Shown: positions 2,871 to 24,201, counted from the stretch's first letter. The stretch is 64,000 nt of DNA from Methanobacteriota archaeon (GCA_963720465.1 OY970393.1:1536001-1600000), one strand, 5' to 3'. Program-made: numbers and translations. Notes: generated by a model not told the origin, from the sequence alone.

Positions 2871-3103
2871 TCAGGTTTTTAAGCTCATGCCTCCCCCTAC
2901 TTTATACAGAGGTCATGAACCGAATCAGGAAGCGGATGCTTGTAAAATCGCCCGTCAACGCCCAATACACCGTGAGTGAGAACACGAGCACGATTTGACG
3001 GCTCCCATTGAATAATATCGCCGTGCTGCTCAGCAAGTTTTCGCAAGTCTCCAAGAACGGAACGTCCCTTGAACCGCGCCGTGGGCATTTTCTGCCTCTT
3101 GAC
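2871..3103 (-). pseudogene. 3'-terminal remnant of a tyrosine integrase (copy D)
   Basis: VKRQKMPTARFKGRSVLGDLRKLAEQHGDIIQWEPSNRARVLTHGVLGVDGRFYKHPLPDSVHD aligns with the C-terminus of the 22660..24180 integrase (IKRQKISMSRFQKPFVLGDLRKFAEQYGDIIQWDQSNRAYILTHGVSGVEWGHYRNPLPENVYD). Confidence 0.9.
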
Positions 3104-3122
3104 CCCCCCCTTAAGAAAACCA

Positions 3123-3149
3123 GAGGCCGAGGGCGAGATTCAAACCCAC
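3123..3149 (-). other. Degenerate tRNA 3'-end fragment (att-like scar; Cys/Ser-type acceptor arm)
   Basis: Minus strand GTGGGTTTGAATCTCGCCCTCGGC resembles a T-arm plus acceptor 3' strand; it lies about 20 bp upstream of integrase remnant D. Confidence 0.5.
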
Positions 3150-3159
3150 TTAACCTAGG

Positions 3160-4032
3160 TTAGCGTCCCCCCGTAAAGATGGCGAGGTCGATTGCGTTCC
3201 CCATCGCAGTATATCCTGCCTGGTTCGGATGCACGCCGTCAGCCATTACGAGCGCAGGATTTGAATGTCCGGGATTCAATGGGTTGTCTATGACTGGATA
3301 AAAATTGATGACCGGGTACCCCTTCAAATTTGCGTACTCAACTATCCACGCGTTCAAACTGTCCCGTTCCGCGAGGTGGTAACTGCTGGGTATGACGGTA
3401 CAGAGGACAGGCACCGCGCCGTAGGATTCGACACGACTGCACATCGCCACGATATTCGCCTGTGTAGTTGCAAGCGGCACTTCACCATTCACTATGTCAT
3501 TCGTACCGCCCATGATAATGACGAAATGCGGGTCTAAAGCAAGGGCCGTGTCTATACGGGCGACCATATCCGCCGTTTTAGCCCCGCCAACGCCCTGATC
3601 AACTACCTCCCAATCCCCGCCGAGGCGTGTTTTGAGAAGATATGGCCAGTTATTCGGGTCAGAAAACCCTTCCGTGATTGAATCTCCGACACAAACTATA
3701 AGGTGCGCGTGCAGCTGGTGCGGCGGGGACATTGGGACTGAAGTAGTCTTGCCACTGCTGCTGCCGAATGGAAACGAGCCCGCTACGAGAGATAACAATA
3801 AAAGGACTAGCACGCCGTAAAGGATATATCGCTTGTCGACCTGCTGGGATGGCTCCCGAGGCGGCAGAGCGTGTGACAGCTTATCGCCTGAAAGCTTTAG
3901 TGGGGGATGTTGGGGAGACCGGTGGGGCGGTAGCCTTGCACGGGGGAGGAAGGATGTGCCGCAATCTGCGCACAATGCGGCGTACGGTTGATTCCTCGCA
4001 CCACATTTCTCGCAGAACTTTTTGTTACCCAT
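3160..4032 (-). CDS. Zinc-ribbon + TM helix + SGNH/GDSL hydrolase
   Basis: CEKC...CADC ribbon, TM segment, GDSIT (block I), GGTND (block III), DGVHPN (block V). ATG 4032 preferred. Confidence 0.9.
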   Translation of the reverse strand: MGNKKFCEKCGARNQPYAALCADCGTSFLPRARLPPHRSPQHPPLKLSGDKLSHALPPREPSQQVDKRYILYGVLVLLLLSLVAGSFPFGSSSGKTTSVPMSPPHQLHAHLIVCVGDSITEGFSDPNNWPYLLKTRLGGDWEVVDQGVGGAKTADMVARIDTALALDPHFVIIMGGTNDIVNGEVPLATTQANIVAMCSRVESYGAVPVLCTVIPSSYHLAERDSLNAWIVEYANLKGYPVINFYPVIDNPLNPGHSNPALVMADGVHPNQAGYTAMGNAIDLAIFTGGR

Positions 4033-4517
4033 AACGCGCTCGTATACGTAAGTCGGCTCAAACAATAGAGCTAAGGTCGGTTTATCCTAAGTGTTGCCTA
4101 CCGTTTTGGCTTACACACACGCGACTTAAAGATACCGATTTATGCCGCCATTTTTGATGTGTTAACGTGCACATTCATAGAAACGCGTTCCCGTGTTGAG
4201 ACAGACCGCGTCAGCGGTAGCTTGAGAGCACATTCTTGCAGTTGGGTTATCACGTTCAGCACGAATTCGCCACTCGTACAAGCAGTGTACGCCCGGATCA
4301 ATAAAGGCGAGAAGATGGAGGCCTTCTACAAGCTCTTTGCTGCTTACATTCGCACAATACCGGTGGAATAGCTAATAGAAAGCGTAGAACGAGCGCGGCG
4401 AGACGCCCAACTACGGCACGTGGTAATATAGGAGTGCCGGCGGCTACTGCCTCGGCAGAGCCGAACGTCTTGAGGGATCGTATTTGCGAACGCTTGCGAT
4501 CGAGTTGGGGGCGACAG

Positions 4518-5183
4518 TCACATCCGACCCTTCTCCATCCAATACTCATACTGATGAACCCGGTCCGCCTTGTTTGCCTCGATTAGTTGCGCGAAGAACG
4601 TTCTTCTCTCTGCGATCTCCTTCTCCTGCGCCGGATACGCGCGCTTTGTTTGAATCGATTCTGCGAGCGTCGTTCCGAGCTTAAACGCCTCGTTAATAGC
4701 AGCATCAAGGGCAGCAGAGTTCCTGTCAAGGGCAACGCCGACCTGTCCTACCGTCAAGACGCCGAGTTCATTCAGGAAATGGTTCATGTAGTCGAGCACT
4801 GCTGCGTCACCTGAACCACCGGACGTGGTCACGGAACAGCCATATTTACCCGAAAGCAGCTGACAATAAATGGCATCGGCCATCCGATCGATAACTGTCT
4901 TAAGTTGCGCGGTCACGCTGTGCATGTACACAGGCGACCCGAGCACGATCCCATCGGCGCTGAGCATCTTGTCTACCAATTCAGCGAGATCGTCCGCCTG
5001 AACACACTCACCTTCGGCGTAACAAACCTGACACCCGAGACAATACCGTATGTCCAGTGCGCCGATATCAACCAGTTCCGTTTCTGCTCCGCGCTCCTTG
5101 GCACCATCTAGGACAGCATCAACCAGCTTAAGCGTCCGACTGTTCTTCCCACGCGGACTGCTGTTTATTCCGAGTATTTTCAT
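4518..5183 (-). CDS. Iron-sulfur flavoprotein / NADPH-dependent FMN reductase family
   Basis: SSPRGKNSRT FMN loop, CLGCQVC-x5-C cluster motif, GSPVY. Confidence 0.9.
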   Translation of the reverse strand: MKILGINSSPRGKNSRTLKLVDAVLDGAKERGAETELVDIGALDIRYCLGCQVCYAEGECVQADDLAELVDKMLSADGIVLGSPVYMHSVTAQLKTVIDRMADAIYCQLLSGKYGCSVTTSGGSGDAAVLDYMNHFLNELGVLTVGQVGVALDRNSAALDAAINEAFKLGTTLAESIQTKRAYPAQEKEIAERRTFFAQLIEANKADRVHQYEYWMEKGRM

Positions 5184-5419
5184 CGTTGTACCTCGATTAC
5201 GTACGACAGGCCCCGCTGCTAAAATAGTTATTTCAGACTGACAACAAACATACGCTCGATATGGAGTTGCAATCGCGGTGTGGCAATATTCGCGAGGAGG
5301 AGGACTGGGGCTGCATAACAGAGGACGATGTACGCCAAGGGCAGCGACTAGCTGACACGATCTTCGTTGTCACCCTGTAAGCACACAAAGCGGCCCTGCG
5401 TGCACCAAAAAGCGAGCTA

Positions 5420-5653
5420 TTGGAGATCCGTCGCAGCAAAATCTCGATCCACCACGTCAAGGCAGGATATGACTACCCAGCAATACGCATTCCCTTCACC
5501 TTTTCAGGGCTTATAGGGCTGTCAACGTGCATCTACCAAACGGTTCATGCTGGGGCTCTTGCGTTCCTCGTAGTTGTCTCGCCGACGTCAAAAAAAGCAG
5601 TCTAGATAAACGCGAAAACGCGAGTTTAAGCGTCAAATCCCCCGTCTTGACAT
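5420..5653 (+). pseudogene. Small mobile-element-type ORF, probably frameshifted in an A7 run
   Basis: ORF 5420..5605 (SKISIHH...YDYPAIRIP, AbrB-like N-terminus by inference). One more A at 5590-5596 would extend it to ...ENASLSVKSPVLT, ending on CTTGACAT. Confidence 0.35.
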
Positions 5654-5719
5654 TACGGTGCGTAACAACCAACTTATGATCGCCTATATCAGGCGGAGGT
5701 TAATTCGTTGTAAAAACCC

Positions 5720-5861
5720 AGCTAAGAAGTGTGGCGCCATCATTTCTTTAAGCGGAATCGCGTTTATTGCTCTTCCCGCAGGAATATTTGACGCCGGCTA
5801 CCTTGACGAGTGTCAACACCGACGCAATGAAAATCAGCAAACAGAGTCCAATTCCCCTTGA
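5720..5861 (+). pseudogene. C-terminal fragment of an ion (K+) channel/transporter
   Basis: GAIISLSGIAFIALPAGI resembles the inner helix after the pore (ALPAG motif); no upstream channel sequence. Confidence 0.45.
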
Positions 5862-5883
5862 AATCGCTATCGGCTATTTTTAT

Positions 5884-6165
5884 TTAGATATTCTCTAAAT
5901 AATAGGGGTCGTTCTCGTCGCGTGGCACGAGAGTTATCTCATCATCCCAGGCGTCTTTTATCACGTAGGATTTGGCGACCGCATCACAAAAATAGGTATG
6001 TCCATTTAGCGCCCCCCGGAGCGTATTATACTTAGCGACGACGTAACTCGTATTTTTATCAATAAGCGCGGTTTCGGGCGCGCCGTTAACCTCTATTGTC
6101 GATATGATTATTCCCTTGACACCATCGCGCGCTATCTGTGTTTGACTTGGACGGCAGCATGCCAT
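5884..6165 (-). CDS. Hypothetical protein
   Basis: 93-aa ORF with ATG and an upstream GAGGG; no motif recognised. Confidence 0.5.
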   Translation of the reverse strand: MACCRPSQTQIARDGVKGIIISTIEVNGAPETALIDKNTSYVVAKYNTLRGALNGHTYFCDAVAKSYVIKDAWDDEITLVPRDENDPYYLENI

Positions 6166-6640
6166 TTTTAACCCTCTATGCCCTCGATGTGTATATCACT
6201 CTTAACAATTCCTATGACGGATAGTCCTGCCGCGATCATGCCTTGCGACTTTTCTTTGAGTTGGAGTAGACAATGTCAAAGCGTTAAGGAGAGGCTCCGT
6301 TTCTGCATACCCCTTTTTTCGCCCTCAAATAACTCTCTTGAATCACGCTAGTATTGCCTCTGAATAACACGGGATGGAGACTGAAGGACTTCTCACAGTT
6401 CCTTAAAAAAATACACCATATCCAGTCTCCTATAGATAATAAAATCCCTTGCGGATCACTGAACGCGGCGTGGCGCGTTTTACCTTGGCTTAGAATCTGA
6501 ACCAGTCATGGAGGAAACATCTTTCCGATAGAGGTTGATGGTCACCCGCTGACTAGGAGCACACATACTGAACACCCCTACTCTCAAGCTCGCGCAGATA
6601 CAATCGGTGCCTTTAAGCGCTCTGATTCAGGGAGTATCAT

Positions 6641-7201
6641 TCAGCGTAGAAGGCTTACGCTTTTAAGCTCCTTAACGATTCGATCGACCGCATTAGCCGC
6701 ATCTTCGAGCTTTCGGCCGCCGGTTATAACCAGTTTGCCGGAACCAAACAAAAGAATCACCACTTTAGGATCCGATACCCGGTAGACGAGGCCGGGAAAC
6801 TGCTCGGGCTCGTACTCAATGTTCTCAAGCCCGAGACCGGTGGCAATTGCGTTCAAATTCAAAACTGCGTGAAGATCTGCTGACGCGACGATGTTCTGGA
6901 CTTTAATCTCGGGCGTTCCCTTCACGTCGATTCCGATATTTCGTAGACTTTGAAATAGATTTTCAATGCCTTTATGAACCTCATCTATGCTCTTTGCACC
7001 CGTACAGACAATTTTTCCCGATCGGAAAATTAACGCGGTGGTCTTTGGGTTCTTGGTCCGATAAACGAGGCCGGGAAACCGTTCAGGGTCATAATCTGCA
7101 CCCTCTAACGCAAGCGTGGCTTGCTTGAGGTTTATCTCTATTCCGATGCCGGTTGAGGCTACCACATTTTCAATTTTAATAGTGTCCCGCGGTTCAACCA
7201 T
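6641..7201 (-). CDS. tbp: TATA-box-binding protein
   Basis: Two TBP repeats: IENVVAS...YDPERFPGLVYR...LIFRSGKIVCTGAKS and VQNIVAS...YEPEQFPGLVYR...LLFGSGKLVITG. Confidence 0.97.
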   Translation of the reverse strand: MVEPRDTIKIENVVASTGIGIEINLKQATLALEGADYDPERFPGLVYRTKNPKTTALIFRSGKIVCTGAKSIDEVHKGIENLFQSLRNIGIDVKGTPEIKVQNIVASADLHAVLNLNAIATGLGLENIEYEPEQFPGLVYRVSDPKVVILLFGSGKLVITGGRKLEDAANAVDRIVKELKSVSLLR

Positions 7202-7531
7202 ACGCTTCCCTTGTTAGTTTATAAAGGCTTAAGCTAGAGAGCATGGAGAGCAAAAAAGGACGGAGATCAACGGACGGGCCTGTGTCAGGCGTCATTTCCC
7301 AATAGATCTATTTTGGGAATTATCAGACTAGCGGATAACGCCCGGCTCGACGCGTGCTCCTGAGGAAATGCGCTTGCATGCTTACGTCGCTATCTCCTCA
7401 TTGAAAAAGGAACGGCATCAATCACGATGCTGTCGCGGACATTAGCGAGAGATGCACAAACCCGCCCGTATCGTTGAGGACACGGAGAGAGGTGCAAGGC
7501 ACCCACGCGCTACGCGCTTAAATGGTACATA

Positions 7532-7663
7532 TTATTCTCTCGTGCGCTGCTCCATCACGTCGAGGTCCTGGAGCATTGCCGGCAATACCTCTTTAATGTC
7601 GCTCAGGTCGGCGCGTATGTGCCTCATATCGGCGGCGATTTCTTCTTGTATTTCCATAGTCAT
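7532..7663 (-). CDS. Small hypothetical coiled-coil peptide (43 aa)
   Basis: MTMEIQEEIAADMRHIRADLSDIKEVLPAMLQDLDVMEQRTRE; its start overlaps the stop of the upstream ORF (ATGA). Confidence 0.4.
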   Translation of the reverse strand: MTMEIQEEIAADMRHIRADLSDIKEVLPAMLQDLDVMEQRTRE

Positions 7664-7776
7664 CTTTTCGTCTCAGTCTCAGCGAAACGAGTCCATTTAT
7701 TGCCTTTAATAGGTCGGCCTGGCACGTCCTCGCGTCGCTTCTTGATGTTTTTTTTAGATTTAGATTTAGCTTTCAT
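7660..7776 (-). CDS. Small basic hypothetical peptide (38 aa)
   Basis: MKAKSKSKKNIKKRREDVPGRPIKGNKWTRFAETETKR; ATGA coupling to the next ORF. Confidence 0.3.
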   Translation of the reverse strand: MKAKSKSKKNIKKRREDVPGRPIKGNKWTRFAETETKR

Positions 7777-7874
7777 TTTCTTATCAATCGCCAGGGCACC
7801 CACAGCTCAAGCGTTAACTGTCTGGTCCGCAGTGTGAGCAAGGAACCCTGCTTAAGTCGTTCTTCTTTCATGAT

Positions 7875-8264
7875 TCATTTCTTACGCCTGCGGTACGCCT
7901 TCTGGCGGCACGCGTTTGAACAATAAAGATTGCTAGTCCGCGCTTCTACCAAGTAGGTGCGGCGCCCCCATTTGTCATAGTACGGCACCTTTGGCATGCA
8001 TTTACCGCACTCAATGCACGCGTTATGTTCGCGGCGGTGGCACTTCGTGCAATGCTTCACGTAAACCTTGCCACCACATGCCGGACATACGCCAAAACTC
8101 GCAGGCGCAGATAAGGCTCTCGCGGCTGTCAAACCACAACAGACAACGTAGCTGCTACTAATTCGGCTATAAAGATTTAAGGCTTTACTCGCAGTTTGCC
8201 AGGTGCGTGCCAAAGTTGAGAGTTGCAACAACGCCGTCCTGTTGACGTTCTTGTGGTCAGGCAC
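7875..8264 (-). CDS. Hypothetical multi-zinc-finger protein (start uncertain)
   Basis: CPAC, CTKC, CIEC and C-terminal YCSNACRQKAYRRR, a motif common in phage/plasmid proteins. Confidence 0.55.
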   Translation of the reverse strand: MPDHKNVNRTALLQLSTLARTWQTASKALNLYSRISSSYVVCCGLTAARALSAPASFGVCPACGGKVYVKHCTKCHRREHNACIECGKCMPKVPYYDKWGRRTYLVEARTSNLYCSNACRQKAYRRRKK

Positions 8265-8407
8265 CTGCTGTAATCTTCTCGTGTTGGCTCATTACAGCGA
8301 TGAGTACCTCTTTTTTAGCCGCATGCGGCAGGGAGATTGCCGCTTTGTCTACTGATTTCCTTGCACCACCCCTCTGAGAAAAACCACGTTCAAAATAGCA
8401 ACCGTTA

Positions 8408-8432
8408 TTGCCGATAAGTTCCTCTTCGGCAA
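8408..8432. other. Inverted repeat (dif/att core-like) just upstream of the Xer-like integrase fragment
   Basis: TTGCCGA-N11-TCGGCAA ending 5 bp before ATG 8438. Confidence 0.4.
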
Positions 8433-8437
8433 CGCGC

Positions 8438-8734
8438 ATGAAGAACATCACCGACTACCTTGAAAAAGAGCAGGTCGATCGGGTGCTTGCGGCGGCGCAC
8501 CAGTGCAGTCAGCGGGACTACTTCATGCTGCGGGTGCTGTGGCGCACCGGCGTGCGGGTCAACGAGTTGCTTACTATCACTCCACGCGATATCGAACCAA
8601 ACAACAGCGTGGTCAACGTCACGAAGGCGAAAGGAGGGAAGCATCGACACGAAGGAGCGGGCATCACGTTTTGCGACGTTCGCTACGATCTAGAGCTCGG
8701 AGCGCTATTGAGCGGTGAGCGCCGGGACACCTGA
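8438..8734 (+). pseudogene. Truncated XerC/D-like tyrosine recombinase
   Basis: YLEKEQV...RDYFMLRVLWRTGVRVNEL...KAKGGK (box I Arg and catalytic Lys); the HxxR and Tyr half is missing. Confidence 0.85.
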
Positions 8735-9386: not shown

Positions 9387-9682
9387 TTTTAGACCCTCGG
9401 TTTTGCATATATCAGTAATGATACAACGGCAGCTCTATATTCGCGATATGCCCCTGTTTTTTTGGCGCGGACTATCCGTCACGCGATCATTGAAGTAGGG
9501 CTATCAACGCCCCGACGGCTGGCGGCTAACATCTGTTCAAATTGTGGGAAAGGCGTAACTCAAGAGGACAAGTTCTGTTCCAAATGCGGGAACTCACTTG
9601 TATTAGAAACGTTAGCATCTGAAATCTCCGGGCCATAAAACATATTTTTCTTGATATTCTGATCTTGCCTTTGGGTAACCTT

Positions 9683-10531
9683 TTACGTCGTACCTATCGT
9701 TAGCACTTCCAGCATACAGAAATAGAACTCTTCCAAATCAAGGATATAATTGTCGGAGTTGGGATCAAAGTGTGTTCGCCACTGCTTAAGATCTTCTTCT
9801 GATAAATATGGAGTTCCTATTTTAGCGTGCCATTCTGCATTACCTGCAATATAGCGTTTTGCTTCTGGAATGAGAGGTGAGAGTTTTTGTATGGCATGGC
9901 TTTTAGTAGATACATCTTTTAGGCCTGCCTGTAAAAAAAGCCCATGCAATTTTCGCCCGGTAAAGTTATCAAATGGGGGTTCTAAGGGATTTTCTTTAAG
10001 AGCCTGGGCCGCTGCTGTTAAGATTTTTAAAGACAACTGAGGCTCGATGGGATGGACAATAAAAAGGCCACCATCAAAATCCTTACCGGCAATTCTTCCA
10101 CCGTTCTTAGTTACTCTTTTCATCTCTTCGATAATCTTAAAATAATCTGTGACATAAGCAAAACAGTTGCTGAAAAAGACTAAATCAAAGGTATCATTGT
10201 CAAAGGAGGCATCGTGGAAATCATCTTTTCGAAACTCAATGATGTTACTAAGGGGATCTTTTTCCAGATTTTCCACAGCATAATTTATTAAATCTGGTGA
10301 GAAATCAAGCCCAACAACTCGCCCATTGGGCTTCACCTTCTCTGCTAGTAGGTGTGTCCATAAACCTGGTCCACATCCTAAATCCAGTACTACATCTCCT
10401 GGTTTAAGATTTAACTCATCAACCGTGTTACGCCGTTCCTGCAATTTTGTTTCATGATGGTCGAGAAGCCATTCTACATTGGTTAACTCCAAGCCCTTTT
10501 CACCCTTAAAATATTGATTCGTTCCTAACAT
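9683..10531 (-). CDS. Class I SAM-dependent methyltransferase (UbiE-like)
   Basis: VLDLGCGPG, VVGLDFS, FDLVF; GGAGG ribosome site; AT-richer than its neighbours. Confidence 0.9.
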   Translation of the reverse strand: MLGTNQYFKGEKGLELTNVEWLLDHHETKLQERRNTVDELNLKPGDVVLDLGCGPGLWTHLLAEKVKPNGRVVGLDFSPDLINYAVENLEKDPLSNIIEFRKDDFHDASFDNDTFDLVFFSNCFAYVTDYFKIIEEMKRVTKNGGRIAGKDFDGGLFIVHPIEPQLSLKILTAAAQALKENPLEPPFDNFTGRKLHGLFLQAGLKDVSTKSHAIQKLSPLIPEAKRYIAGNAEWHAKIGTPYLSEEDLKQWRTHFDPNSDNYILDLEEFYFCMLEVLTIGTT

Positions 10532-10709
10532 AAAATATCCTCCTTATTATTTAGACGTGGAACCTATAAAGCACTTCATCAGATGAAGCTGTATTTTTGG
10601 TTGTTAATGGCGCTCGTTTAACAATAAAAGAGGCAACTGTTGATAAAACAGGAGAGGTAAGTCAGGCCAACAAAATGCTCCAAATGATGACAGTGGCAAG
10701 TATTGTAGA

Positions 10710-12062
10710 GTGATTCCTTTGGCAAAATTTCATAAAAAAATCCGAGCTAAGCCAGATGATGTACGTGAAACCGGCGAGAGGGATGAACTTTTGCCTGGAC
10801 AAGAAGACTACGATCTGATTATTGTCGGGGCCGGGCCTTCCGGGCTTTTTTGCGCCATAAACTCCATGCAGAATGGTAAAAAGATAGTGATTATAGAAAG
10901 AAAGGATTCCCCGGGGCATAAGCTCCTGATATCAGGTTTTGGCCGCTGCAATATAACTCACGATGGAGATATTCAGGGCTTTCTTGACCACTATGGAAAT
11001 CATGGCAGGTTCCTGCGCCCGGCTCTTCTCGGCTTCACGAACCGCGATCTCATTTCCTTCTTCAAAGACCTGGGGCTGGGCATGGTCCAAGAGAGGGGAG
11101 GTAAGATATTCCCGGATACTATGCAGGCAAGAGATGTGCTGAATATCTTGACCCTGCAATGCCAGGAATTGGGGGTAGTTATCAAGTGCAGCCAGGCTGT
11201 CACGTCCATAACCCGGAGGGAGGATGGTTTTTTTGTGGGCTGTGTTGGTGGCAGCTATCGCTCCAAGCTGTTGGTGATAGCCACAGGGGGATGCTCCTAT
11301 CCAGCCACGGGATCGAGCGGAGACGGCTACAGGTTTGCCGGCATCCTTGGCCACAGCATATCTGAGATCGGTCCGGCTCTAACCCCAATTTTCATAAAGG
11401 AATATCCTTTCTCTGAGCTGGCCGGTCTCTCGTTTTCGGATATGAAGATCTCGCTCTATCGCCATGCAAAAATCAAAGAACATCGGGGCGATATTCTTTT
11501 CACCCATGATGGACTCTCGGGCCCAGGAATTTTGGACCTATCCAGATATATCAGAGCAGAAGACGTAATTAAGCTCTCTTTTGTACCGGAGGACAGACGA
11601 GAGGCACTGGAGGAATGGCTCGTGGAAAGGGCACGGCGTGATGGTGGAAGGAGCTTACGGTCTGTGCTGGCAAGTCTGCCTAACTTTGTGCCTCCTGGTG
11701 TGCCACTCTCTCCCCGTTTGACAAAGAGGTTGCTGGAGATCTCGGGGATTGCCTCTGACCTGCAAACGGCTCAATTGACCCGAAAGATGCGAAATCGATT
11801 GATTGATAATCTGACAGGTCTACCTCTGGTCGTATCCGATGTTTGTGGCTTTAACCTGGCCATGTGCACCAGAGGTGGAGTGGAAACCGCTGAGGTCGAT
11901 CCCAAAACCACGCAGTCCAGACTGGTCAAAGGACTATATCTGGTGGGCGAGGTTTTGGATGTGGACGGGGATACGGGGGGCTATAATCTGCAAGCGGCAT
12001 TTTCTACGGGAATGCTGGCTGCTAGGAGCATCAAGAGCGATTTTGACAGAATTAGCGGCTAA
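10710..12062 (+). CDS. HI0933/BaiN-family NAD(P)/FAD-dependent oxidoreductase
   Basis: IVGAGPSG, KLLISGFGRCNITH, ATGG-x-SYP-x-TGS-x-GDG, LFTHDGLSGP, GEVLDVDGDTGGYNLQAAFSTG. Start uncertain. Confidence 0.93.
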   Translation: MIPLAKFHKKIRAKPDDVRETGERDELLPGQEDYDLIIVGAGPSGLFCAINSMQNGKKIVIIERKDSPGHKLLISGFGRCNITHDGDIQGFLDHYGNHGRFLRPALLGFTNRDLISFFKDLGLGMVQERGGKIFPDTMQARDVLNILTLQCQELGVVIKCSQAVTSITRREDGFFVGCVGGSYRSKLLVIATGGCSYPATGSSGDGYRFAGILGHSISEIGPALTPIFIKEYPFSELAGLSFSDMKISLYRHAKIKEHRGDILFTHDGLSGPGILDLSRYIRAEDVIKLSFVPEDRREALEEWLVERARRDGGRSLRSVLASLPNFVPPGVPLSPRLTKRLLEISGIASDLQTAQLTRKMRNRLIDNLTGLPLVVSDVCGFNLAMCTRGGVETAEVDPKTTQSRLVKGLYLVGEVLDVDGDTGGYNLQAAFSTGMLAARSIKSDFDRISG

Positions 12063-12673: not shown

Positions 12674-13033
12674 ACACGATCTCGCTATGGACTTATTGCG
12701 CTATCCCGATTCCGTAAACTGTACGACGAGGAAAAATAAGGAACGATAGGCTTTTTTAACGGTAATTAGGCCCTTCGTGGTTTCTTCTCCAGAGCTTATC
12801 TCTTCCCGCGTTGAGACTGTATTAAGCTCCTCTGACAAGTTTTGTCCAATCTGTCCCGCAAGGCCTTCTAACCTAGATGTCAGGCAGGTTTAGGCCAAAC
12901 TCTGCTTGGTGGTGAGATCAGGCTTTTTTCTACAGAATGCGCTCGTTTCTAATACATCTAAAAGAGAAGACTTAAGCTACTACACTGCTCTCGTACGCTT
13001 TTGACTCATTTTTTTGTCAAGGGGGAAATGTGC

Positions 13034-13804: not shown

Positions 13805-14319
13805 GCATCGAAGACGGCGTACTCAGAGAGCAGCACTAGCGGGAACGTCTGGTATAGCGAGTATAATCTTGGTAACTGGGGTCAATGGTCCTTCTTAGGT
13901 AACCTCCTCTAGTTGAGCAGCCAACTAAACCAAGGCGAAACGTATGATAAGAGTCGGAGCAGTCCGGCTCAACTCTTTTATTTTTGACTATCTGAAGGCC
14001 GGTGCTGCACCAGGATTTAGCCCATTTCAGCGCACCTTGATAGCTAAACGTGTCTGCTTGGGTTCTAGCGCATAAACTCGGCCTAGAAACGGATTGAATC
14101 TTTGCTCGACGGGCCATCTCGCTCTGAGAATTCGACATCGCTCCAATACTTCCTATAGATATCAAAAACCGGCCCAGGCCTTGGACTCTTGTAAAACCTC
14201 CAGTCCACACTTGCTATCCTCTGTTTTCATTTCTTGCCTCTGCCTCTCGCATCACGATTCACTCCTTTTGTTTAACAAAGGGCTTAGGCCCATTCGGATG
14301 CTTACAGCAGAGCTATAGT

Positions 14320-15663: not shown

Positions 15664-15697
15664 AAGATGTCATTTAAGCTTTCGAACTGATGGGGAC

Positions 15698-15990
15698 TCA
15701 ACCTGAAAGTTCGACATCGCCCCAGTATCGCACGTAAATATCGTGGACGTGCTCAGGAAGCGGATGCTTATAGAAACACCAATCCACTCCAGAAACGCCG
15801 TGAGTGAGAATGTAATTCCTGTTACTTTGATCCCACTGCAATATATCGCCCATTTGTTCACAAAATTTCCTAAGATCTCCGTGGACGATACGAGCATCGC
15901 TGTGCAACAGACGGACTTCGTTGTGCCTAAGCCACTGCTGAAAGGACAGTTGCGCAAAAGCAGGTTCATCATCTTGTCACAGTGTAGGGG
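15698..15990 (-). pseudogene. 3'-terminal remnant of a tyrosine integrase (copy C)
   Basis: QDDEPAFAQLSFQQWLRHNEVRLLHSDARIVHGDLRKFCEQMGDILQWDQSNRNYILTHGVSGVDWCFYKHPLPEHVHDIYVRYWGDVELSG* aligns with the intact integrase C-terminus. Confidence 0.92.
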
Positions 15991-16990: not shown

Positions 16991-17103
16991 AGCGACAAGG
17001 AAACAAAACTCAAGGTTGCCGCCCTGTTTTTAATGCGTTTTCACTCATTTCCTCACTCAGCACCGACTGCCTTCTTCTTCTGAAATGCCTTCGGAGATAC
17101 GCA

Positions 17104-17208
17104 TCAACCCACAAGTTCGACATTCCTCCAGTATCGCATGTACGTGCTGTAAACGTTTTCGAGCAAAGGATGCTTATAGTACTTCCAATCGATGCCGCTC
17201 ACCCCGTT
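17104..17208 (-). pseudogene. 3'-terminal remnant of a tyrosine integrase (copy B)
   Basis: GVSGIDWKYYKHPLLENVYSTYMRYWRNVELVG* versus intact GVSGVEWGHYRNPLPENVYDIYMKYWRDVDFTI*. Confidence 0.88.
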
Positions 17209-17327
17209 CGGCCATAATTGCAGCACAGCTGAAAGACAACGCTTAAGCCAACACGCCGCCTTTTGCCTGTTGATTTCGTTTTTTTTTTTTGTCTGAGAGG
17301 ATTTGTTTGGAAAAAAAGTTCGTAGCT

Positions 17328-18247
17328 ATGAAACAGCATTATGTGCCTCAATTTTATCTTCGGAATTTCTCACCGGATGGAAAAGGGCTATGCTGCTGCA
17401 ATTTAGCGACTAGAAAATCAAAACGTCTAAAGATCAAGAAGCTTTTTGTTGAACGTGATTTCTACGCAGGTAGCTCAACGGCATCGACAATCGAACTTGA
17501 ATTATCTAAATTAGAGGGCAAGGATGCCAAGATCATTCAACAGATTCTAAAGACGCACACTCTTACAAGCAAAACGGGTGAAGACTTGTTCGATCTAAGC
17601 AGGTTAGTTCTTGTCATGGCCTCGCGGACAAAAGCAACAAAAAATAGCCTTGAGAGGAGAGCCTTTCTTTACGATTATTCTATGGAAAAACTCGGCCTTA
17701 GACCAGAAGAGGTGAGAGGTGAGAAACTTAATCCAAAATCACTTAATTTAGGCGCTATGGAATTGGTATTGAATCTGCCAGAGATAATCTCTGGTCTGGC
17801 GAACACACTCTTAATCAATAAAACGAATGATCCGTTTACCCCTTTTATCACGTCTGATTCTCCGGTGATCCGCTATAACTTAATAGCGAGAGATTTAACA
17901 GATAAAGATTTAACAGGTTTTCTAAATAAAGGCCTCATCATCGTTCTTCCGCTTAGCGAAGAGGTTGCCCTCTGTCTATTTGATGGTGAAAGATATAAGC
18001 TAAAAGACGCGATAAATGGCAATATTATCATACCGGATAGCGAAGTGTCCTATCACTTCAGGACGATAGGTTATGGGGCCCGCGTTCCCTGCCTGTTGCT
18101 TTGAAATTACCATTTCTTGAAATTTATAATGACACTTTTCAAGGACTGGAACTGTTCAAGGTCAGAAATGAAGAGGTATTAGCTTCTTTACAGAACACTA
18201 TTGAAGAGGTTAGTAAAAAGCTTTCTAACACGTTCACATACGAGTAA
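17328..18247 (+). pseudogene. DUF4238-domain protein with apparent internal deletion/frameshift near 18045
   Basis: KQHYVPQFYLRNF, FITSDSPV, LPLS. The frame ends at 18104, but a plausible tail (LKLPFLEIY...TFTYE*) continues in another frame to 18247. Confidence 0.75.
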
Positions 18248-18775
18248 CAGGCTGATATTGCGCTATAATCCAGCTGTTGAGAATAACTATTTTCGATAAC
18301 TGCATTATTGAGCAGTGATAGAGATGCGCGCCCTAATGGTGATTCTGAGCAATCGCATAAAGCATTATATATCATTATTAAGCGGGACTAGCATCAGGTT
18401 AGCGGTCTAAGCGAGAGAGTGCCACTACAAAGTCGTGGCCACCGAGGCCGGCGAGTCGAATGAGAGCGAATTGAAAAAGAATAATGGATGATTTTGCGTT
18501 TAGTGTCGCGTTGGGGGGCGGTTCGCACCTTTCTGCAATTGGTCAGTCCCCCCGTCAATCCGTCGGTTAGGCCCCCATAGGCCTTTTTTGCGAACCGCCC
18601 GAAGCTTGCCACCTTAACTGGGTAGCCGTGCAGAAATTTTCACGCGCCTTTAACGTCATGAATGAACATTCCAGAGCTCTTATCCCTTCTCTGCTCGTTT
18701 TGAACACCCTTGCTAGACTCGCTAAGGTGCCTCTTAGAATGACGGAATGCAATAACCTAGCAATATAGATACCAT

Positions 18776-21700
18776 TCACTGCTCTTGTTCCCATTGTCTC
18801 TGTTTATCACGAAGGGTTGGATATCTTCCAATTAAACTTTGAAAAATAACCCCGACATCGTGCTGTAATGGTTTAGGGGTTTTGAAAAGCAGATCAACGG
18901 CGTTTCCGATGTCGCCAATGTAGCACTCCTGCGGATACTCCAACAGCTCCTTAAAAATGTCCACAAAATCCTTCTTGCTCACTGTGAAGATCATTTCCAG
19001 CATATCGCCATTTGCATAATATGGCGCTGAAATCCTTTTTGGGTATTCGAGATGAGTAGTCAGATATTCTTTTTCTGCGGCGATACATTTCTTGTAAATT
19101 GATAGAAGTTCATTTTGATAATTTGCATTGTTAAAATTATCCTTCACGAGGGAGTAGATGCTGTCATATGCGCTTTGGTCATATCTCTCGACAATCCTGC
19201 GCACATATTTAAGTGTCTTACTTAAATAGCTCTCGCCGGCGCTGCTTTTCGCATGCGATAATGACCACATATGCCAAGCAATTGTAGATTTAGTCGCTGA
19301 ATCTCTTTCAATCAAACGGCAGAGCAAATCCTTGAACGGAAGCTTTTCTTCTGGACTGAAATCTCGGCGAAGCTCGGCGAAACAGATTATGGTTCCCAAA
19401 TACTTTTTTAGAGCCTCGACATCGGCCTCCACAAAGATGTTAACTGCTTTCGTCGCGTGCGCTAGGTCAACGGACCGCAGTCTGTTAAAAACGTCGGCCA
19501 TTGCGACTTGCAAGGCCTGTCTTTTATTCTCCTCCTTTTCAAGCATCTCAAATGCAATAGCCTCTACTTCATTTGCTTGTCCCTCTGACATGAACCTCAT
19601 GCCGTTCGCCTTCGCATTTCTATTCTCAGCAAGTCGAGCCAACGCCAGGCACGATAGCTGTCTCACGTGAAGATTTCTATCTCTCGTAAGACTTCGGACT
19701 AACGCGATCACCTCGTCCACTTTACCTTCAATGCCACTCCTTACAACACTGCTGATAGCCCAAGCAGCGTACCCCCTGACGGTTCCTATGACCATGACGT
19801 TCGCATTTGCGACATCGATATCCTTTTCGTTACTGGGGTCGGGGTCGCTAACAAATCTCTCAATAAGCTCAAAACTCGGTATTGGATTCTCTTTATCTTT
19901 TGCAGCGCATTCTGTTACGAATTGCACCAGCAACTCACGCGAGTGACTAAAAGAAAACTTGGTTACGAATAGGTCGTAATTAGCAGTAAGTGCATTTGCA
20001 GCACTGAATGCGCGTTCTAATGCTTTTCGGCTATGTCTGTTGTGCAAATCGTGCAATGTCCCAGCCAGGAGCTGTTGTTCGTTGATGGTCAAAAAATCTT
20101 TGTTTTTTATGTCGTTCCATGTTGTCCAACCTTCGTTTGGGCGTTTCACGATTATCCTTGCGAACAACGCGCAGAATTCGCGCACTTGAATTTGGTTAAG
20201 GCGTTTTATGAACGACTCATTGGCGACAAGTTTTTTAAATATCGACGTTGCCCGATTTGAGTCATGACACAGTAATTTCTCGACGTTCGGAATGAGATTG
20301 CCATTGAAAAACAAATCATACTCCAGGTAGCCAGGATTGCTCGCCCACGCCTCTATTTGCGCGATTGCTTGTTTGTGGCCCATAAAAGCTAGGTCGCCTA
20401 CAACTTGGTCCACGAATGGATTGACAGGGCCGCCTGCGGCGGTTATTTTAACAGCCTCCCACTTCTGATCGTCTGTAAACTTGCCAGTTTTCAAGATCTG
20501 ATATACAAATTCAGCGTTATCAGACACATGTCTTCCTGATAGTAGGTGCCCTCCCAAAATCTCCGAGGCTTCTTGGTTGCCTTTCTTATATTCATCAAGA
20601 ACGAATGGAATAGCGATTCGATTGAGGAAATCCGGCCTGTTCTTTGAAACCTCCGTGGGCTCCACTACGCAGTTTTGTTTTATGAAACTCCACCTAGTCT
20701 CGCAGTTGAAATCTCGCAACGCTGGAATCAAGGTGCACAGGATAAATTGTTTTTCTGGAACCTCGTAATCATGCCCATAAACAGCACTTATAGGTCCGAT
20801 GAGATCCCAGCCTTCGAAATCGCACCTGAATTTTTGTCTGTAGAACTTCTCGTATTGCGTGGCGAGTTTGCTTGACATTGCCAGGAATCTGTGCTCGAAA
20901 AATTCGTTATTGTTATCGTTAAGAAAGTGTTTCAGGATTCGAAATATCTCTCTTGGGGCATAGCGACTATAGTTACCTTCGTCTCCGATGACATTGAAGG
21001 TGTTAATGATGAATTCATAGATCTGCTCTTTGGCATCCTTGGTAGATTTCTGATATAATGATTCCAATGTATTGCATAAGTCGCTTTTGCGATGCAATTT
21101 ATCCTCGTCGGCGTTGAGGTAGAAAAGCTCCTCGTCGTACTTTTCGAACTGTTTTTTCAATATGCTTAAAACCGCTTGATGCAGCGAACTATCTTTCTCA
21201 ACAATGGCCGTCAGCAGTTTTGCCAAACCGCTTTCAAAAAAAGTGTCAAAATAGAAGGTATTCAATTGATCTAAGTTGCTCTCAACAAAAGATAAAATGC
21301 ACCTCCTATTCGCCTTATTCGCTATGTTAGCACGGAAAACATCGAATAGTTGCAGAGGATAATAGATTTTGCACGCGTGCCAAACGTTCGTCCAGTCGGC
21401 CAATTTTAAGTCATGTTTGACCTTCAATTTGTCAAGCAACAAATACATTAAGGCGGGATCTTGCGATAAGGCGGTAATCTCGCTGTCTCCGGCCCCTAAA
21501 TTCCCCCCTCTCGCCGCCGCATCAATTTTGTCGATCTGTTTTTCATAACTAGTTAGTTTGGCATTAAAAATTGTTGATCTATCTTTGGCTTTAGAGGCTT
21601 GAGATTGAATTTCGCGCTCCATATCTTCGCGCTTATACACGATGCCTTCAGCAGACCCCCAATGGAACACTTTGAGTAAAATGCTGCGTACAACGTCTTC

Positions 21701-22216
21701 TATATCATCTTGGGGTAGCCAAAAGCCGATAACTTGACTGAATAACAAGTAGACTAAATCTTCAAGAACACTCTTGGGTTGCTGCCAAAGTCTTAGTTTT
21801 GAAAGGAGTTGCCCGTGCTCTCGCTCATACCCTTTCTTCGCTAACTCGTCTTCTAGAACTTCCTGCGGGTAAAATCTCAGCGCTTCTATTTGTTTAAAAG
21901 TCTCAGAAGTCTCAATGCTGCATAGGCTGGTTATCACTAGTATCTCATCGGCAGCGTCGGCAGCTTCTTTCTCTTTGTCATATAGATTCTTGACGAAAGC
22001 TTTGAGAATGTGCTCACGCAATCCCTCTTTCCGATCTTTAGCTTCACATACTATCTTGTGACCTTCGGCAAATACTAAGGTGAAGTCAATAGCGCCTGGC
22101 GTCTCCAATTGAATAGACAAGAACGCAGGAGTTTTCAGGTACTGCAGAAATAACGCCAGCGCGGCAAGTGTCTGATAGTTTTGCCCTTTGAAAGGGCCAC
22201 GTCCTGGATGTGTCAT
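18776..22216 (-). CDS. 1146-aa protein: N-terminal PD-(D/E)xK-like nuclease domain plus long alpha-helical region
   Basis: GQNYQ...IQLE...IDF...VCEAKD at the N-terminus; helical HEAT-like remainder; no Walker A seen; AT-rich. Confidence 0.75.
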   Translation of the reverse strand: MTHPGRGPFKGQNYQTLAALALFLQYLKTPAFLSIQLETPGAIDFTLVFAEGHKIVCEAKDRKEGLREHILKAFVKNLYDKEKEAADAADEILVITSLCSIETSETFKQIEALRFYPQEVLEDELAKKGYEREHGQLLSKLRLWQQPKSVLEDLVYLLFSQVIGFWLPQDDIEDVVRSILLKVFHWGSAEGIVYKREDMEREIQSQASKAKDRSTIFNAKLTSYEKQIDKIDAAARGGNLGAGDSEITALSQDPALMYLLLDKLKVKHDLKLADWTNVWHACKIYYPLQLFDVFRANIANKANRRCILSFVESNLDQLNTFYFDTFFESGLAKLLTAIVEKDSSLHQAVLSILKKQFEKYDEELFYLNADEDKLHRKSDLCNTLESLYQKSTKDAKEQIYEFIINTFNVIGDEGNYSRYAPREIFRILKHFLNDNNNEFFEHRFLAMSSKLATQYEKFYRQKFRCDFEGWDLIGPISAVYGHDYEVPEKQFILCTLIPALRDFNCETRWSFIKQNCVVEPTEVSKNRPDFLNRIAIPFVLDEYKKGNQEASEILGGHLLSGRHVSDNAEFVYQILKTGKFTDDQKWEAVKITAAGGPVNPFVDQVVGDLAFMGHKQAIAQIEAWASNPGYLEYDLFFNGNLIPNVEKLLCHDSNRATSIFKKLVANESFIKRLNQIQVREFCALFARIIVKRPNEGWTTWNDIKNKDFLTINEQQLLAGTLHDLHNRHSRKALERAFSAANALTANYDLFVTKFSFSHSRELLVQFVTECAAKDKENPIPSFELIERFVSDPDPSNEKDIDVANANVMVIGTVRGYAAWAISSVVRSGIEGKVDEVIALVRSLTRDRNLHVRQLSCLALARLAENRNAKANGMRFMSEGQANEVEAIAFEMLEKEENKRQALQVAMADVFNRLRSVDLAHATKAVNIFVEADVEALKKYLGTIICFAELRRDFSPEEKLPFKDLLCRLIERDSATKSTIAWHMWSLSHAKSSAGESYLSKTLKYVRRIVERYDQSAYDSIYSLVKDNFNNANYQNELLSIYKKCIAAEKEYLTTHLEYPKRISAPYYANGDMLEMIFTVSKKDFVDIFKELLEYPQECYIGDIGNAVDLLFKTPKPLQHDVGVIFQSLIGRYPTLRDKQRQWEQEQ

Positions 22217-22442
22217 CGTTTTTGGACTCGTTAAGCCTTCCTCTTAGCACCTTTTAGAATAGACCCTTGGGTGATTTTTACGCCAGATAATAAGCGAGTT
22301 CGGTTTTCCAGTTAGGCAGATTAATCCTCACCTCGTAACCTAGGACAGTCTGAAGTCGCATACTTAAAGGGAGAGCTCAAGTAAAAAAGTTACGTATACA
22401 CCTACTGGCTCTCCGCAAAGAAGCGCAAGGCGGCCTATCGGC

Positions 22443-22576
22443 TCACACGGTCAAGCGAACGTGGCCTAATGCTTCATAAATGCATCATACCGTGCGTAGG
22501 CAGCGGATGCTTGTAAAATCGCCAATCGACTCCTGAGACGCCGTGCGAGTATGTAGTTCTTATTTGACTGATCTCA
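22443..22576 (-). pseudogene. 3'-terminal remnant of a tyrosine integrase (copy A)
   Basis: DQSNKNYILAHGVSGVDWRFYKHPLP followed by a frameshifted tail; about 85 bp downstream of the intact integrase stop. Confidence 0.88.
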
Positions 22577-22659
22577 GCGCGAGATACCACCTTACCACTT
22601 ACAAGTTTGCGAGATGCCTCGAAAATGGCTCGGCAGGAAGCTCAAGTTCAGCGACAGAG

Positions 22660-24180
22660 CTAGATTGTGAAGTCGACGTCTCTCCAGTACTTCATGTAGA
22701 TATCATATACGTTCTCTGGCAAGGGATTTCGATAATGCCCCCACTCAACCCCTGAAACACCGTGTGTCAAGATGTAGGCTCTGTTTGACTGATCCCACTG
22801 AATAATGTCGCCGTACTGCTCGGCGAATTTCCTCAAATCGCCGAGAACGAACGGCTTTTGGAACCGCGACATCGAGATTTTCTGTCGTTTTATCCACTGC
22901 AAAAAGGAACTGTGAGTGAACATCAGTTGGTCGTCATTTCGCCCAGCGAGTAGGGGTTTAAGGGCTTCCACAACGCGAGGCGCCAGCGGCACGTAGTGGC
23001 TCATACGAACCTTGTCTTGCGACGAATCAACGAGGAGCACTGGCTTATCAGCAGCCAACGCCGTGCGGAACTGGCCTACCCTTAGCTTCGCCGTCGTAGC
23101 TTCGCTCCGTTGGCCGGTGTACGCCTCAAACAAAACGAACGCCGAATATTTTGCTGATCGCTCAGAACTGATCTCCCCTTCTCGTTGTGCTTTCTCTATG
23201 TGTTGGAGAACGTTGCTAATATCCTCCTTAGTCACGATACGAGAAGTGACGTTCTTGCGCTCTTTGACCGTTTTTGGAGGCTCTAAGTAGGCAGTGAACG
23301 TCTGATAGCGCGGTTCGGCGCGAGTCATGGCGAGGAACTTGAGGAAAGACTTGGCAAAGTTGAGCACTTTAGAATGAGAATCGGTCGATGTATACTCCTC
23401 TAGTGTTCGCTCCCGAAGCGTTTCGACAGTGTGATGTGATATCGCCCCTATCGTGCAATCCCACAATAGCTTTGAAGATCTGTTAATCCAATCCCGCGAT
23501 TTCTGAGCAAGGCCGCTCGTACGATACGTAACGTAACGATCAAGCTCATCCCGCGAGAAGCTAAGCGAATGCTCTTTTTGGTGAAGAGTACTCGAGGATA
23601 TGACTTTAGCCCCCTCCGCGCCGCTCTGTGTTTGCGTTGATGATGGCGTTGGTGCAGGTATCAGTGTTATTGGCTGAGGAGTTAGTGTCACTGCCTCGCG
23701 CTTCATTGCCTTCTTCGCTATTTCCTTTAAGTGATCGGCAATAGCTACACTATATTCAAACTCAGGATCTTCCACGAGCTCTTCCTCATCTTGAGGGGCA
23801 AGACGCGCCCAACGCGCTTCAGAATCGACCACAATATCGTCGAAATAAGCTTGCCAATCTATCGGCAGAAGGTCGACTAAGCGCGTAGACTCGTTCTCGT
23901 GTTGGGGTGCTGAATGAACATTTCCATTCTCGGTATATTGGTAGGAGGTCTCATCGTGCGCTTCCTCCTCTCCCAACCCTTCGCCTGCGGAGTTGTGCAA
24001 CTTTTCATCAAAGTTGTGCAACTTTTTGTCCTTGTTGTGCTCATCTTCTCCCAAGATTCTCACTACCGACAAACGGCTATCTGAGGTCTCTAACGTCCTC
24101 TGGGTCTCCGATTTGGAAAAGAATAGATGGGCTCGAGGCGATTCGAACGCCCGACCTTCGCCGTGTAAAGGCGATGTCAT
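22660..24180 (-). CDS. Tyrosine recombinase/integrase whose ORF begins inside tRNA-Val (true start uncertain)
   Basis: YTGQR (Arg), DK (Lys), GDLRK (HxxR equivalent), LTHG, HY (Tyr). The first codons (LHGEGRAFESPRAH) are the tRNA 3' half. Confidence 0.88.
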   Translation of the reverse strand: MTSPLHGEGRAFESPRAHLFFSKSETQRTLETSDSRLSVVRILGEDEHNKDKKLHNFDEKLHNSAGEGLGEEEAHDETSYQYTENGNVHSAPQHENESTRLVDLLPIDWQAYFDDIVVDSEARWARLAPQDEEELVEDPEFEYSVAIADHLKEIAKKAMKREAVTLTPQPITLIPAPTPSSTQTQSGAEGAKVISSSTLHQKEHSLSFSRDELDRYVTYRTSGLAQKSRDWINRSSKLLWDCTIGAISHHTVETLRERTLEEYTSTDSHSKVLNFAKSFLKFLAMTRAEPRYQTFTAYLEPPKTVKERKNVTSRIVTKEDISNVLQHIEKAQREGEISSERSAKYSAFVLFEAYTGQRSEATTAKLRVGQFRTALAADKPVLLVDSSQDKVRMSHYVPLAPRVVEALKPLLAGRNDDQLMFTHSSFLQWIKRQKISMSRFQKPFVLGDLRKFAEQYGDIIQWDQSNRAYILTHGVSGVEWGHYRNPLPENVYDIYMKYWRDVDFTI

Positions 24181-24201
24181 AACCAGCTAGACCACGAGCC
24201 C
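24128..24201 (-). tRNA. tRNA-Val (anticodon TAC)
   Basis: GGGCTCGTGGTCTAGCTGGTTATGACATCGCCTTTACACGGCGAAGGTCGGGCGTTCGAATCGCCTCGAGCCCA folds as a cloverleaf; 74 nt, no intron, CCA not encoded. Confidence 0.97.

Follow-up and report, generated by a model that had tools for sequence, protein, structure and literature searches.

A split SSV-type integrase and a row of integrase 3′ stubs at a tRNA-Val gene of a Methanobacteriota archaeon

Introduction

SSV-type (‘suicidal’) integrases were reportedly connected with archaeal gene capture by She and colleagues in 2001 (Nature 409:478). Part of a review (PMC8371274) places the attachment site, attP, of these enzymes within the open reading frame (ORF) of the integrase gene, int. 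In the portions of the literature cited here (PMC8371274, PMC7253208, PMC2926602), suicidal integrases are described mainly from hyperthermophiles, plus a few Methanosarcinales. Those of the pT26-2 type, as described in parts of Badel et al. 2020 (PMC7253208) and Soler et al. 2010 (PMC2926602), occur in Thermococcales, Archaeoglobales, and Methanosarcinales, target the 3′ ends of variable tRNAs (with one 5′-end case), carry att in alternative frames, and include hybrid integrases from pseudogenes of different origin. Among the 73 integrases considered in the same part of Badel et al. 2020 (PMC7253208), no tandem integration was observed, and tandems are argued there to excise readily. Here we describe a 64,000-nt stretch of DNA from the Methanobacteriota archaeon GCA_963720465.1 (OY970393.1:1536001-1600000), hereafter the window. 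Its region 2871-24201 belongs to an island that is anchored at a tRNA-Val gene and continues past the left end of the window, and in which the C-terminal moiety of a split SSV-type integrase, Int(C), is followed by a row of integrase 3′ ends (stubs) set among unrelated genes.

Part of a report on Prochlorococcus tycheposon islands (10.1101/2020.12.28.424599) describes new elements that push older ones inward, with fragmented integrases and partial tRNAs remaining, and part of a study of Thaumarchaeota (PMC6563490) describes tandem integrated elements. The window island resembles such tRNA-anchored islands in that newer elements appear to have displaced older ones and in that fragmented integrases remain. 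It differs in that the integrases of those islands are not split by integration, and in that the partial tRNA-Val copies of the window are gone. Systematic 3′-only retention, as in the window array, goes unmentioned in that part of the tycheposon report (10.1101/2020.12.28.424599). We conclude that the window represents a known mechanism in a new clade and host range, and no new recombination system.

Results

The window protein is a divergent tyrosine recombinase

An intact tRNA-Val(TAC) gene (24128-24201, minus strand; ARAGORN), the single tRNA found in the window, is the integration target and the left junction of the island. An integrase-like open frame of 506 codons (22660-24180, minus strand) begins within tRNA-Val, with the 3′ half of the tRNA forming the first codons of the frame. 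The gene called here (22660-24063, minus strand) encodes 467 aa of a split SSV-type tyrosine integrase, namely its C-terminal moiety, Int(C); the frame is intact and the N-terminal domain is missing. Int(C) covers h3-409 (E 4e-193) of a family hidden Markov model (HMM) that was built from 30 homologues and has 410 positions, the h numbers by which fragments are located below. Homologues of the window integrase amount to 462 matches, many of them labelled ‘integrase’ or ‘hypothetical protein’ in the source records.

The AlphaFold model of Int(C) (mean pLDDT 64, and below 50 for the C-terminal ~70 residues) has the two-domain fold of tyrosine recombinases. In a Foldseek search against PDB, all four matches at E ≤ 0.001, and nearly all after them, are tyrosine recombinases; the best are XerA (4a8e, E 2.1e-4), 5hxy, lambda Int (1z1b), Tn1549 Int, XerD, and Cre, with low TM-scores (0.2-0.4). 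Sequence searches with the window protein against Pfam (E ≤ 0.01), NCBIfam, PHROGs, and PDB gave no integrase match. At E ≤ 10, PF00589 matches weakly in 13 of the 30 homologues (best E 0.0014), with the window protein at 14.7 bits where the cut-off is 27.1. No PDB chain matched the window integrase by sequence or profile; the solved SSV1 integrase domain is presumably among those chains. A tblastn search with the window integrase and an Archaeoglobus homologue found no match in a plasmid collection, nor did the window integrase find one in a phage collection. Residues R319, K351, R411 (in DLRKF), H434, and Y444 are invariant in the 30 homologues, with an R-to-H spacing of 23 and an H-to-Y spacing of 10. 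We take them to be the putative catalytic set, from the spacing in lambda Int and XerD and not from a structural superposition. The window protein is a very divergent tyrosine recombinase, and its architecture is of the SSV type.

The integrase gene is split at an attachment site

For comparison we used 73 related loci from one contig scan seeded with C-terminal peptide patterns. Because of this seeding, only HMM finds across whole loci were counted, and exact duplicates were dropped. The loci come mostly from Methanomicrobia-type metagenome-assembled genomes (MAGs), together with Methanospirillum, Methanoculleus, Methanoregula, and Archaeoglobus records. Three genomes have at least five integrase loci each among the loci fetched, the hosts being mesophilic peat and digester Methanomicrobia-type archaea; the integrase of the Archaeoglobus MAGs shows 46% identity. 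Contigs of the family are also filed under Verrucomicrobiae, Acidiferrales, or Bathyarchaeia MAGs (L004, L016, L019-L021, L012, L067, L072), and these bacterial or Bathyarchaeia-labelled contigs are likely mis-binned archaeal island or mobile DNA.

Nearly every long copy of the integrase gene in the 73 loci has a tRNA or a tRNA half of ~42 nt located 40-100 nt upstream. The targets are Val, Asp, His, and Gly tRNAs, and att is found in three geometries, as a 3′ half in sense or antisense orientation or as a 5′ half in sense orientation. An HMM of the ~60-aa domain of the N-terminal moiety, Int(N), finds 49 copies in the loci and the window. Of these, 13 stand immediately before a long copy; the remaining 36 are remote from Int(C), as a rule next to a tRNA or tRNA half. 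A single element, bounded by the tRNA and the tRNA half, has Int(C) at one end and Int(N) at the other, for example in L043, L059, L008, L044, L010, L003, and L026. In all three elements compared in this respect (L010, L003, and L026), the ORF of the ~60-aa domain enters the distal att in the frame that Int(C) uses on leaving the proximal att, and one of the three uses an alternative att frame.

Uninterrupted proteins agree with this arrangement. P0186, a full protein of 450 aa, has the N domain followed by residues 144-448, which align to the window integrase with 55% identity (E 1e-122). Most of the 70 longer database proteins with an N domain end just past the att-encoded peptide; five more of the 70 run, by a motif screen, through this peptide into the start of Int(C) (P0184 was checked by BLASTP), and partial continuous N domain-att-Int(C) ORFs occur in P0122, P0144, and P0184. 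As in SSV-type integrases, attP lies inside the integrase ORF, and the element carries Int(N) at one end and Int(C) at the other, beside att in the tRNA gene. Since att, the tRNA half, sits inside the ORF, what an earlier note on this DNA had called one complete integrase is the Int(C) half only.

The N domain is modelled as beta-beta-alpha-beta-beta (mean pLDDT 72). Pfam has nothing for it, and its predicted fold has no significant PDB match (best MazE at E 1.3, with pSSVi C56 and VapB lower); ‘AbrB/MazE-like’ is a lead only. A further database ORF, P0189, joins the Int(N) domain, the att-encoded peptide, a short linker, and the C-terminal part of an integrase from near h312.

Between the tRNA and the recombinase core, the window carries two 21-nt direct repeats (23991-24032, minus strand; repeat search, family D13), each carrying an imperfect palindrome of the AGTTGCACAACT type (AGTTG-NN-CAACT). 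The motif recurs in six loci; there, as in the window, it precedes the recombinase core by 197-265 nt, with two copies each in the window, L003, and L024 and one each in L001, L002, L027, and L070. In the alignment of homologues this region encodes KLHN, KLPT, or KLCN. The varied peptides suggest that conservation is at the DNA level, which would make the palindrome a candidate protein-binding site. The core-side flank of tRNA-Val is 86-91% identical to that in L024, L001, and L025, which represent the orthologous locus, and the island content there is different.

Stubs in the window

The array contains five co-oriented C-terminal stubs, all on the minus strand, and a sixth lies at 63.8 kb on the plus strand (tblastn and family HMM). 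Stub r1 (22466-22626), a decayed Int(C) 3′ end, is frameshifted and starts ~35-40 nt past the stop of the long ORF; the HMM covers 22551-22492 (h375-394, E 3.4e-5), and the DNA alignment carries the stub to about 22626. It is part of a conserved integrase-end-plus-stub module that aligns with L001, L005, L039, L071, and L057. Some stubs, r1 among them, were probably brought in as parts of composite elements and not formed at the tRNA-Val locus. Stubs r2 (17110-17217; HMM 17208-17113, h377-408, E 1.1e-11) and r3 (15701-15976; HMM 15976-15704, h319-409, E 2.8e-42) have intact frames, and r3 is a mosaic. Stub r3b (14125-14217; h379-409, E 6e-8) follows. Stub r4 (2900-3124, about h330-401; HMM 3106-2900, h333-401, E 1.2e-29; tblastn reaches 3124) has a premature stop and is fused to a 23-nt tRNA-His-like 3′ end (3125-3147, minus strand; blastn-short, 22/23 identical to the tRNA-His of L039). 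This att remnant is the only partial tRNA in the window. The sixth stub (63840-63908; h387-409) lies ~40 kb from the island with no tRNA near it within the window, and it may be part of another island beyond the window end.

Several stubs carry stops or frameshifts. The window stubs are mutually divergent (60-79% identity over a common 58-nt block), and their nearest full-length relatives differ. Other genes abut their broken ends: the stop of a GDSL lipase gene lies 13 nt before the att remnant of r4, and the start of a DUF4238 gene lies 72 nt from r2. The stubs are therefore truly truncated. A search of the window with the family HMM returned no piece of the conserved middle (h95-340), even with the threshold relaxed to E<1. 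The N-domain HMM found no Int(N) half on the minus strand of the window. It did find an orphan Int(N) of the same family on the plus strand, opposite to the array (5441-5596, E 3e-33); this moiety ends in a stop, no recognisable att follows it, and it is not recognisable from the window’s own integrase ORF.

The earlier note had reported four same-strand remnants. All four are found at about the places it gave, and so is their mutual divergence; it had missed r3b (14217-14125). Its statement that each remnant keeps the catalytic Tyr region does not extend to all six stubs, since r3b starts after the GVSG motif and the 63.8-kb stub after the putative catalytic Tyr. It had also seen no N-terminal or middle pieces, which is right for the middle of the protein but not for the N-terminus, given the orphan Int(N).

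The 3′ bias is general across related loci

After de-duplication, the 73 loci and the window contain 84 long copies, 76 distinct short C-terminal stubs, and 9 other short fragments. Of the stubs, 65 share the strand of the nearest long copy and 9 are opposite to it; the remaining 2 are in loci with no long copy. The 3′ bias and co-orientation that the earlier note had read from one island thus recur, and the stub pattern is real and general across related loci.

Part of the bias reflects detection. In a simulation with 15% of bases mutated, 25-aa pieces were found at rates of 0.55-0.58 in the C-terminal block and 0.00-0.32 elsewhere in the core (h90-329); for 40-aa pieces the rates were ~0.95 and 0.23-0.84. 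Short mutated pieces are thus 2-5 times easier to find at the C-terminus, whereas pieces of at least 70 aa are found about equally everywhere. Among fragments of ~70 or more positions, 17 are C-anchored and 5-6 are others. The 3′ bias is real and smaller than the raw ratio, and easier C-terminal detection is a part explanation only.

No Int(N) lies within 600 nt upstream of any of the 76 stubs, and a T-loop-like tRNA motif lies upstream of 1 of 81 stubs (counted before de-duplication). The loss of att is also seen at the anchor of the island, as no second copy of the tRNA-Val 3′ half was found anywhere in the window.

Breakpoints vary for one and the same unit

The starts of the stubs form a continuum from h213 to h389. 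When integrase ends are grouped by downstream flank, 10 families result, 6 of which contain both long copies and stubs. Flank family 1 has five full copies and stubs from h213, 306, 340, 355, 373, and 378; flank family 2 has two full copies and stubs from h334, 352, 360, 385, and 388. Of the window stubs, r3 pairs with a full-length copy in L062, and a shorter remnant precedes the same cargo in L025. Stub r4 is convergent with a PQQ surface-protein gene, and it pairs with an integrase in L026 that lies in the homologous arrangement beside the same PQQ gene and is full-length but frameshifted. No common sequence was found upstream of the stubs. Variable cuts of one unit, the lack of Int(N), and the lack of a common upstream sequence speak for deletion scars rather than for a recombination site of fixed position. 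The alignment of remnant starts accordingly does not bear out the shared breakpoints that the earlier note had expected, one unit being cut at 5-6 places; its view that integrase 3′ stubs mark old unit boundaries stands.

Two other placements of att were considered and rejected. If att lay inside the 3′ end of int, the stubs would be true Int(C) halves; no tRNA-like sequence was found within full genes, and few N-side fragments end in att. A pseudo-att within the THGVSG codons, which resemble the anticodon arm of tRNA-Val, is at odds with stubs that start there without a preceding left att half.

In the largest downstream-flank family, a gene for a protein of 189 aa (L006 10917-11486, minus strand) is convergent with Int(C), the stops being 16 nt apart, and the integrase 3′ end may overlap the terminator region of this gene. 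A dispersed hairpin also accompanies some stubs. It has a 6-bp stem and a 7-nt loop followed by CGAC, often with a conserved leader of ~25 nt, and is sometimes paired. The loci and the window contain 20 matches to the motif (for example L001 12505, L039 12457, L047 5211/5328/7045, and L057 12637/15854), about half of them followed by a stub starting at h383-389; in loci other than the window the hairpin marks unit ends, often immediately ahead of a stub. Homology begins at the hairpin, and the upstream flanks are unrelated. The hairpin may be a terminator, a MITE-like element, or an element end; the end of an IS200/IS605-type insertion was also considered. The window copy, of the GAGCC-7 nt-GGCTC type (12813-12829, minus strand; motif search), is not followed by a stub.

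Origin of the stubs

On balance, the tRNA-Val island probably consists of the stacked remains of small integrative elements with divergent SSV-type integrases, and the stubs are probably their decay scars. The attP of this family, a tRNA half of 40-50 nt, is located inside the int frame, between the ~60-aa beta-beta-alpha-beta-beta N domain and the recombinase part. Integration into the tRNA therefore cuts int, placing Int(C) at one end of the element, here behind tRNA-Val, and Int(N) with a second att at the other. Because the split gene is dead, the cargo is captured. Where two units abut, an Int(N)-att-Int(C) junction could rebuild an integrase and excise units, and the stacks that persist would be those with destroyed junctions. 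Each junction in the window would now be without Int(N) and att, and the older Int(C) without 75-95% of its length on the 5′ side, a 3′ stub being left beside the cargo. The 3′ end of Int(C) would be kept as the part that adjoins retained cargo, the 5′ end adjoining dispensable att and Int(N) DNA. The stubs correspond to the best-conserved block of a gene present in many copies; for this reason they stay recognisable, and they seem still to exchange sequence with other copies, as the mosaic r3 and a gene-conversion-like pattern suggest. The earlier note had argued that random erosion should not keep the same 3′ end each time; the neighbours of the two ends offer an ordinary answer. We infer the order of these events, and the 3′ bias may reflect survival of junction-deleted stacks, a simple edge effect, or both.

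Stacks of this kind are found in related loci. Att repeats between units, as in a tandem island at a tRNA, are missing from the window and present in related loci; in L026, three Val halves are 100% identical, and they share a contig with the tRNA-Val of L001. The loci hold 13 contiguous Int(N)-att-Int(C) junctions, of which 1 is a continuous ORF and 12 are broken.

Several observations weigh against this proposal. The two sides of the junctions are in the same frame in 2/13 cases, which does not differ significantly from a chance expectation of one-third. Att persists without the 5′ part of Int(C) in r4, in an L052-type stub that has the 5′ half of a tRNA-Asp lying 85 nt upstream, and in P0189, an att-retaining internal deletion like r4 whose retained part starts at the same DDE motif as stub r3; these three cases indicate that att loss is not always what is selected. 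Stub lengths are skewed short, with 60/76 starting after h340 and none between h95 and h212. A single random junction deletion does not predict this skew, so that repeated erosion, an edge effect, or a hotspot is needed. In the stub of the module, differences at codon positions 1 and 2 (0.14, 0.18) are below those at position 3 and in the spacer (0.40, 0.395); the 2-3 times stronger conservation of positions 1 and 2 is not predicted by pure neutral decay. In addition, short N-side remnants are hard to detect by an integrase HMM, so the true asymmetry is smaller than 76 to 9, and the loci are non-independent, as several share the same genomes.

Codon-like conservation in one stub lineage, together with several intact frames, could mean that the stubs encode small proteins, such as dominant-negative tails that block integrase assembly and stabilise the island. 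This is the least credible of the alternatives. A conserved start codon is lacking (no in-frame start occurs in L001 or L071), the copy in the window carries a frameshift, and selection of stubs by a protein HMM favours low non-synonymous change. The ratio of non-synonymous to synonymous change (pN/pS) is 0.20 for stubs against the nearest full copy and 0.15 for full copies against each other; taken over all stubs this ratio is uninformative on function, as synonymous sites have reached saturation in the nearest full copies sampled and low pN is favoured by the HMM. Whole pseudogenes might instead have decayed in place with their best-conserved C-terminal block alone still recognisable, in line with the easier detection of short mutated pieces there. 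We regard this as very improbable, since other genes abut the window stubs, r1 lies ~40 nt past a stop, the excess of C-anchored pieces persists at a length of at least 70 aa, where detection is about equal, and full-length and stub versions of one unit exist. Site-specific recombination at the stubs, with the integrase 3′ segment as a secondary site of the integrase in an integron-like platform, was the favoured idea of the earlier note. Stubs are indeed co-oriented and at cargo boundaries, a full integrase is often followed by a stub series (for example in L025, L014, and L047), and the 7-nt-loop hairpin before some stubs resembles a core-type inverted repeat. Like integrons, the window array has integrase-linked blocks of unrelated genes with a repeated sequence at block boundaries. 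Unlike them, it has no fixed attI/attC-type site and no common promoter logic: a fixed structure at each cassette boundary is absent, its cargo lies on both strands, partly convergent with stubs, instead of in promoterless co-oriented cassettes, and its boundary repeats are decaying coding remnants with stops and frameshifts. Breakpoints are continuous and differ for one and the same unit, the hairpin is absent at that position in full genes and from most stubs (about 10/76 have it), and att in this family is a tRNA half upstream of the core. A cis-acting role of the 3′ segment is extremely improbable on these grounds.

A more serious alternative, though an unlikely one, is that the stubs act as portable homology, host homologous recombination with live integrase genes moving stub plus cargo and refreshing integrase 3′ ends. 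Stub r3 is a mosaic whose 5′ part is ~85% like the L052 integrase and whose 3′ part, with the downstream flank, is ~80-87% like L062. Two close module pairs show spacer differences of 0.16 and 0.19, against 0.41 and 0.49 at the third positions of the stub. The codon-like pattern of the stub exists without a usable start codon, hairpin-plus-stub modules of ~130-170 nt occur in several loci with unrelated flanks on both sides, and one integrase-end-plus-stub module is joined to integrases of the Val-tac, Val-cac, and Asp 5′ half att types. These sequence patterns suggest gene conversion or crossovers in the conserved 3′ block. Gene conversion alone would suffice for them, however, with no movement of cargo; neither a circle nor a reciprocal product was seen, the statistics come from 38 codons in six loci, and units with the same flank have different breakpoints, which circle movement by homologous recombination would keep. 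It is accordingly doubtful that the stub 3′ blocks are dispersed homology anchors and silent cassettes, through which host recombination would shuffle stub-bounded cargo between islands and mobile elements and feed sequence back into integrase genes. If true, cassettes would circulate much as in integrons but with no site-specific recombination involved, and self-split integrases could be rebuilt from a reservoir of pseudogenes.

Cargo and other features of the island

The cargo blocks are mutually unrelated. By Pfam they include DUF4238, a YdjM-like protein, an HI0933-like flavoprotein, DUF2148, an Ada Zn domain, a SAM methyltransferase, a TBP, an FMN reductase, a GDSL lipase, and a PQQ/PGF-CTERM surface protein, and the GC content of the island ranges from 41% to 58%. 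The earlier note’s description of a tRNA-anchored island with several independently acquired cargo blocks is thus upheld. The block next to r1 encodes a protein of 1146 aa with a weak HEAT-repeat match in Pfam (18776-22216, minus strand), in a low-GC block of 42-46% GC, and the DUF4238 protein (Pfam E 2.5e-30) is encoded at 17289-18104 on the plus strand. A 1.1-kb block with the SAM methyltransferase gene (9654-10775; 41% GC; blastn and Pfam) is 98.6% identical to L026 15605-16727, in a tRNA-Val island of another genome. Core genes are only ~87% identical, which suggests that the block moved between genomes very recently.

The island also holds a fragment of a different, ordinary XerA/XerC-like integrase at 8408-8734 (plus strand), opposite to the stub array. 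It matches PF00589 positions 2-67 (E 9e-10) and NCBIfam XerA (E 1e-12), and is thus the front of a catalytic domain and no 3′ stub. The PQQ beta-propeller surface protein beyond r4 (1637-2776, plus strand) has eight tandem 120-nt repeats, 62-86% identical to a reference copy, and a PGF-CTERM anchor; its relatives sit in the tRNA-Val islands of L001 and L026.

Discussion

The clade of the window integrase shares with SSV-type integrases the position of attP inside the int ORF. It differs in having no sequence match to any PDB chain and no Pfam match above the cut-off, in its mesophilic peat and digester hosts, in using all three att geometries, and in the stacking of Int(C) scars at one tRNA. 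The pT26-2-type integrases and the window clade are alike in their tRNA 3′-end targets, variable target tRNA, and alternative att frames, whereas the window clade stacks att copies, integrases, and stubs at one tRNA, including the 13 Int(N)-att-Int(C) junctions. A search of the literature, with subscription papers and supplementary files outside its scope, found no account of suicidal integrases in Methanomicrobia-type hosts or of such stacks.

These findings extend self-splitting integrases and archaeal gene capture to abundant mesophilic, peat-type relatives of methanogens. The stacked state, unobserved in one study of 73 such integrases, provides natural Int(N)-att-Int(C) junctions and many pseudogene scars, and the stacks are material for the published idea that split integrases are rebuilt from pseudogenes. 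The short 3′ stub can serve in annotation as a marker for the boundaries of captured gene blocks.

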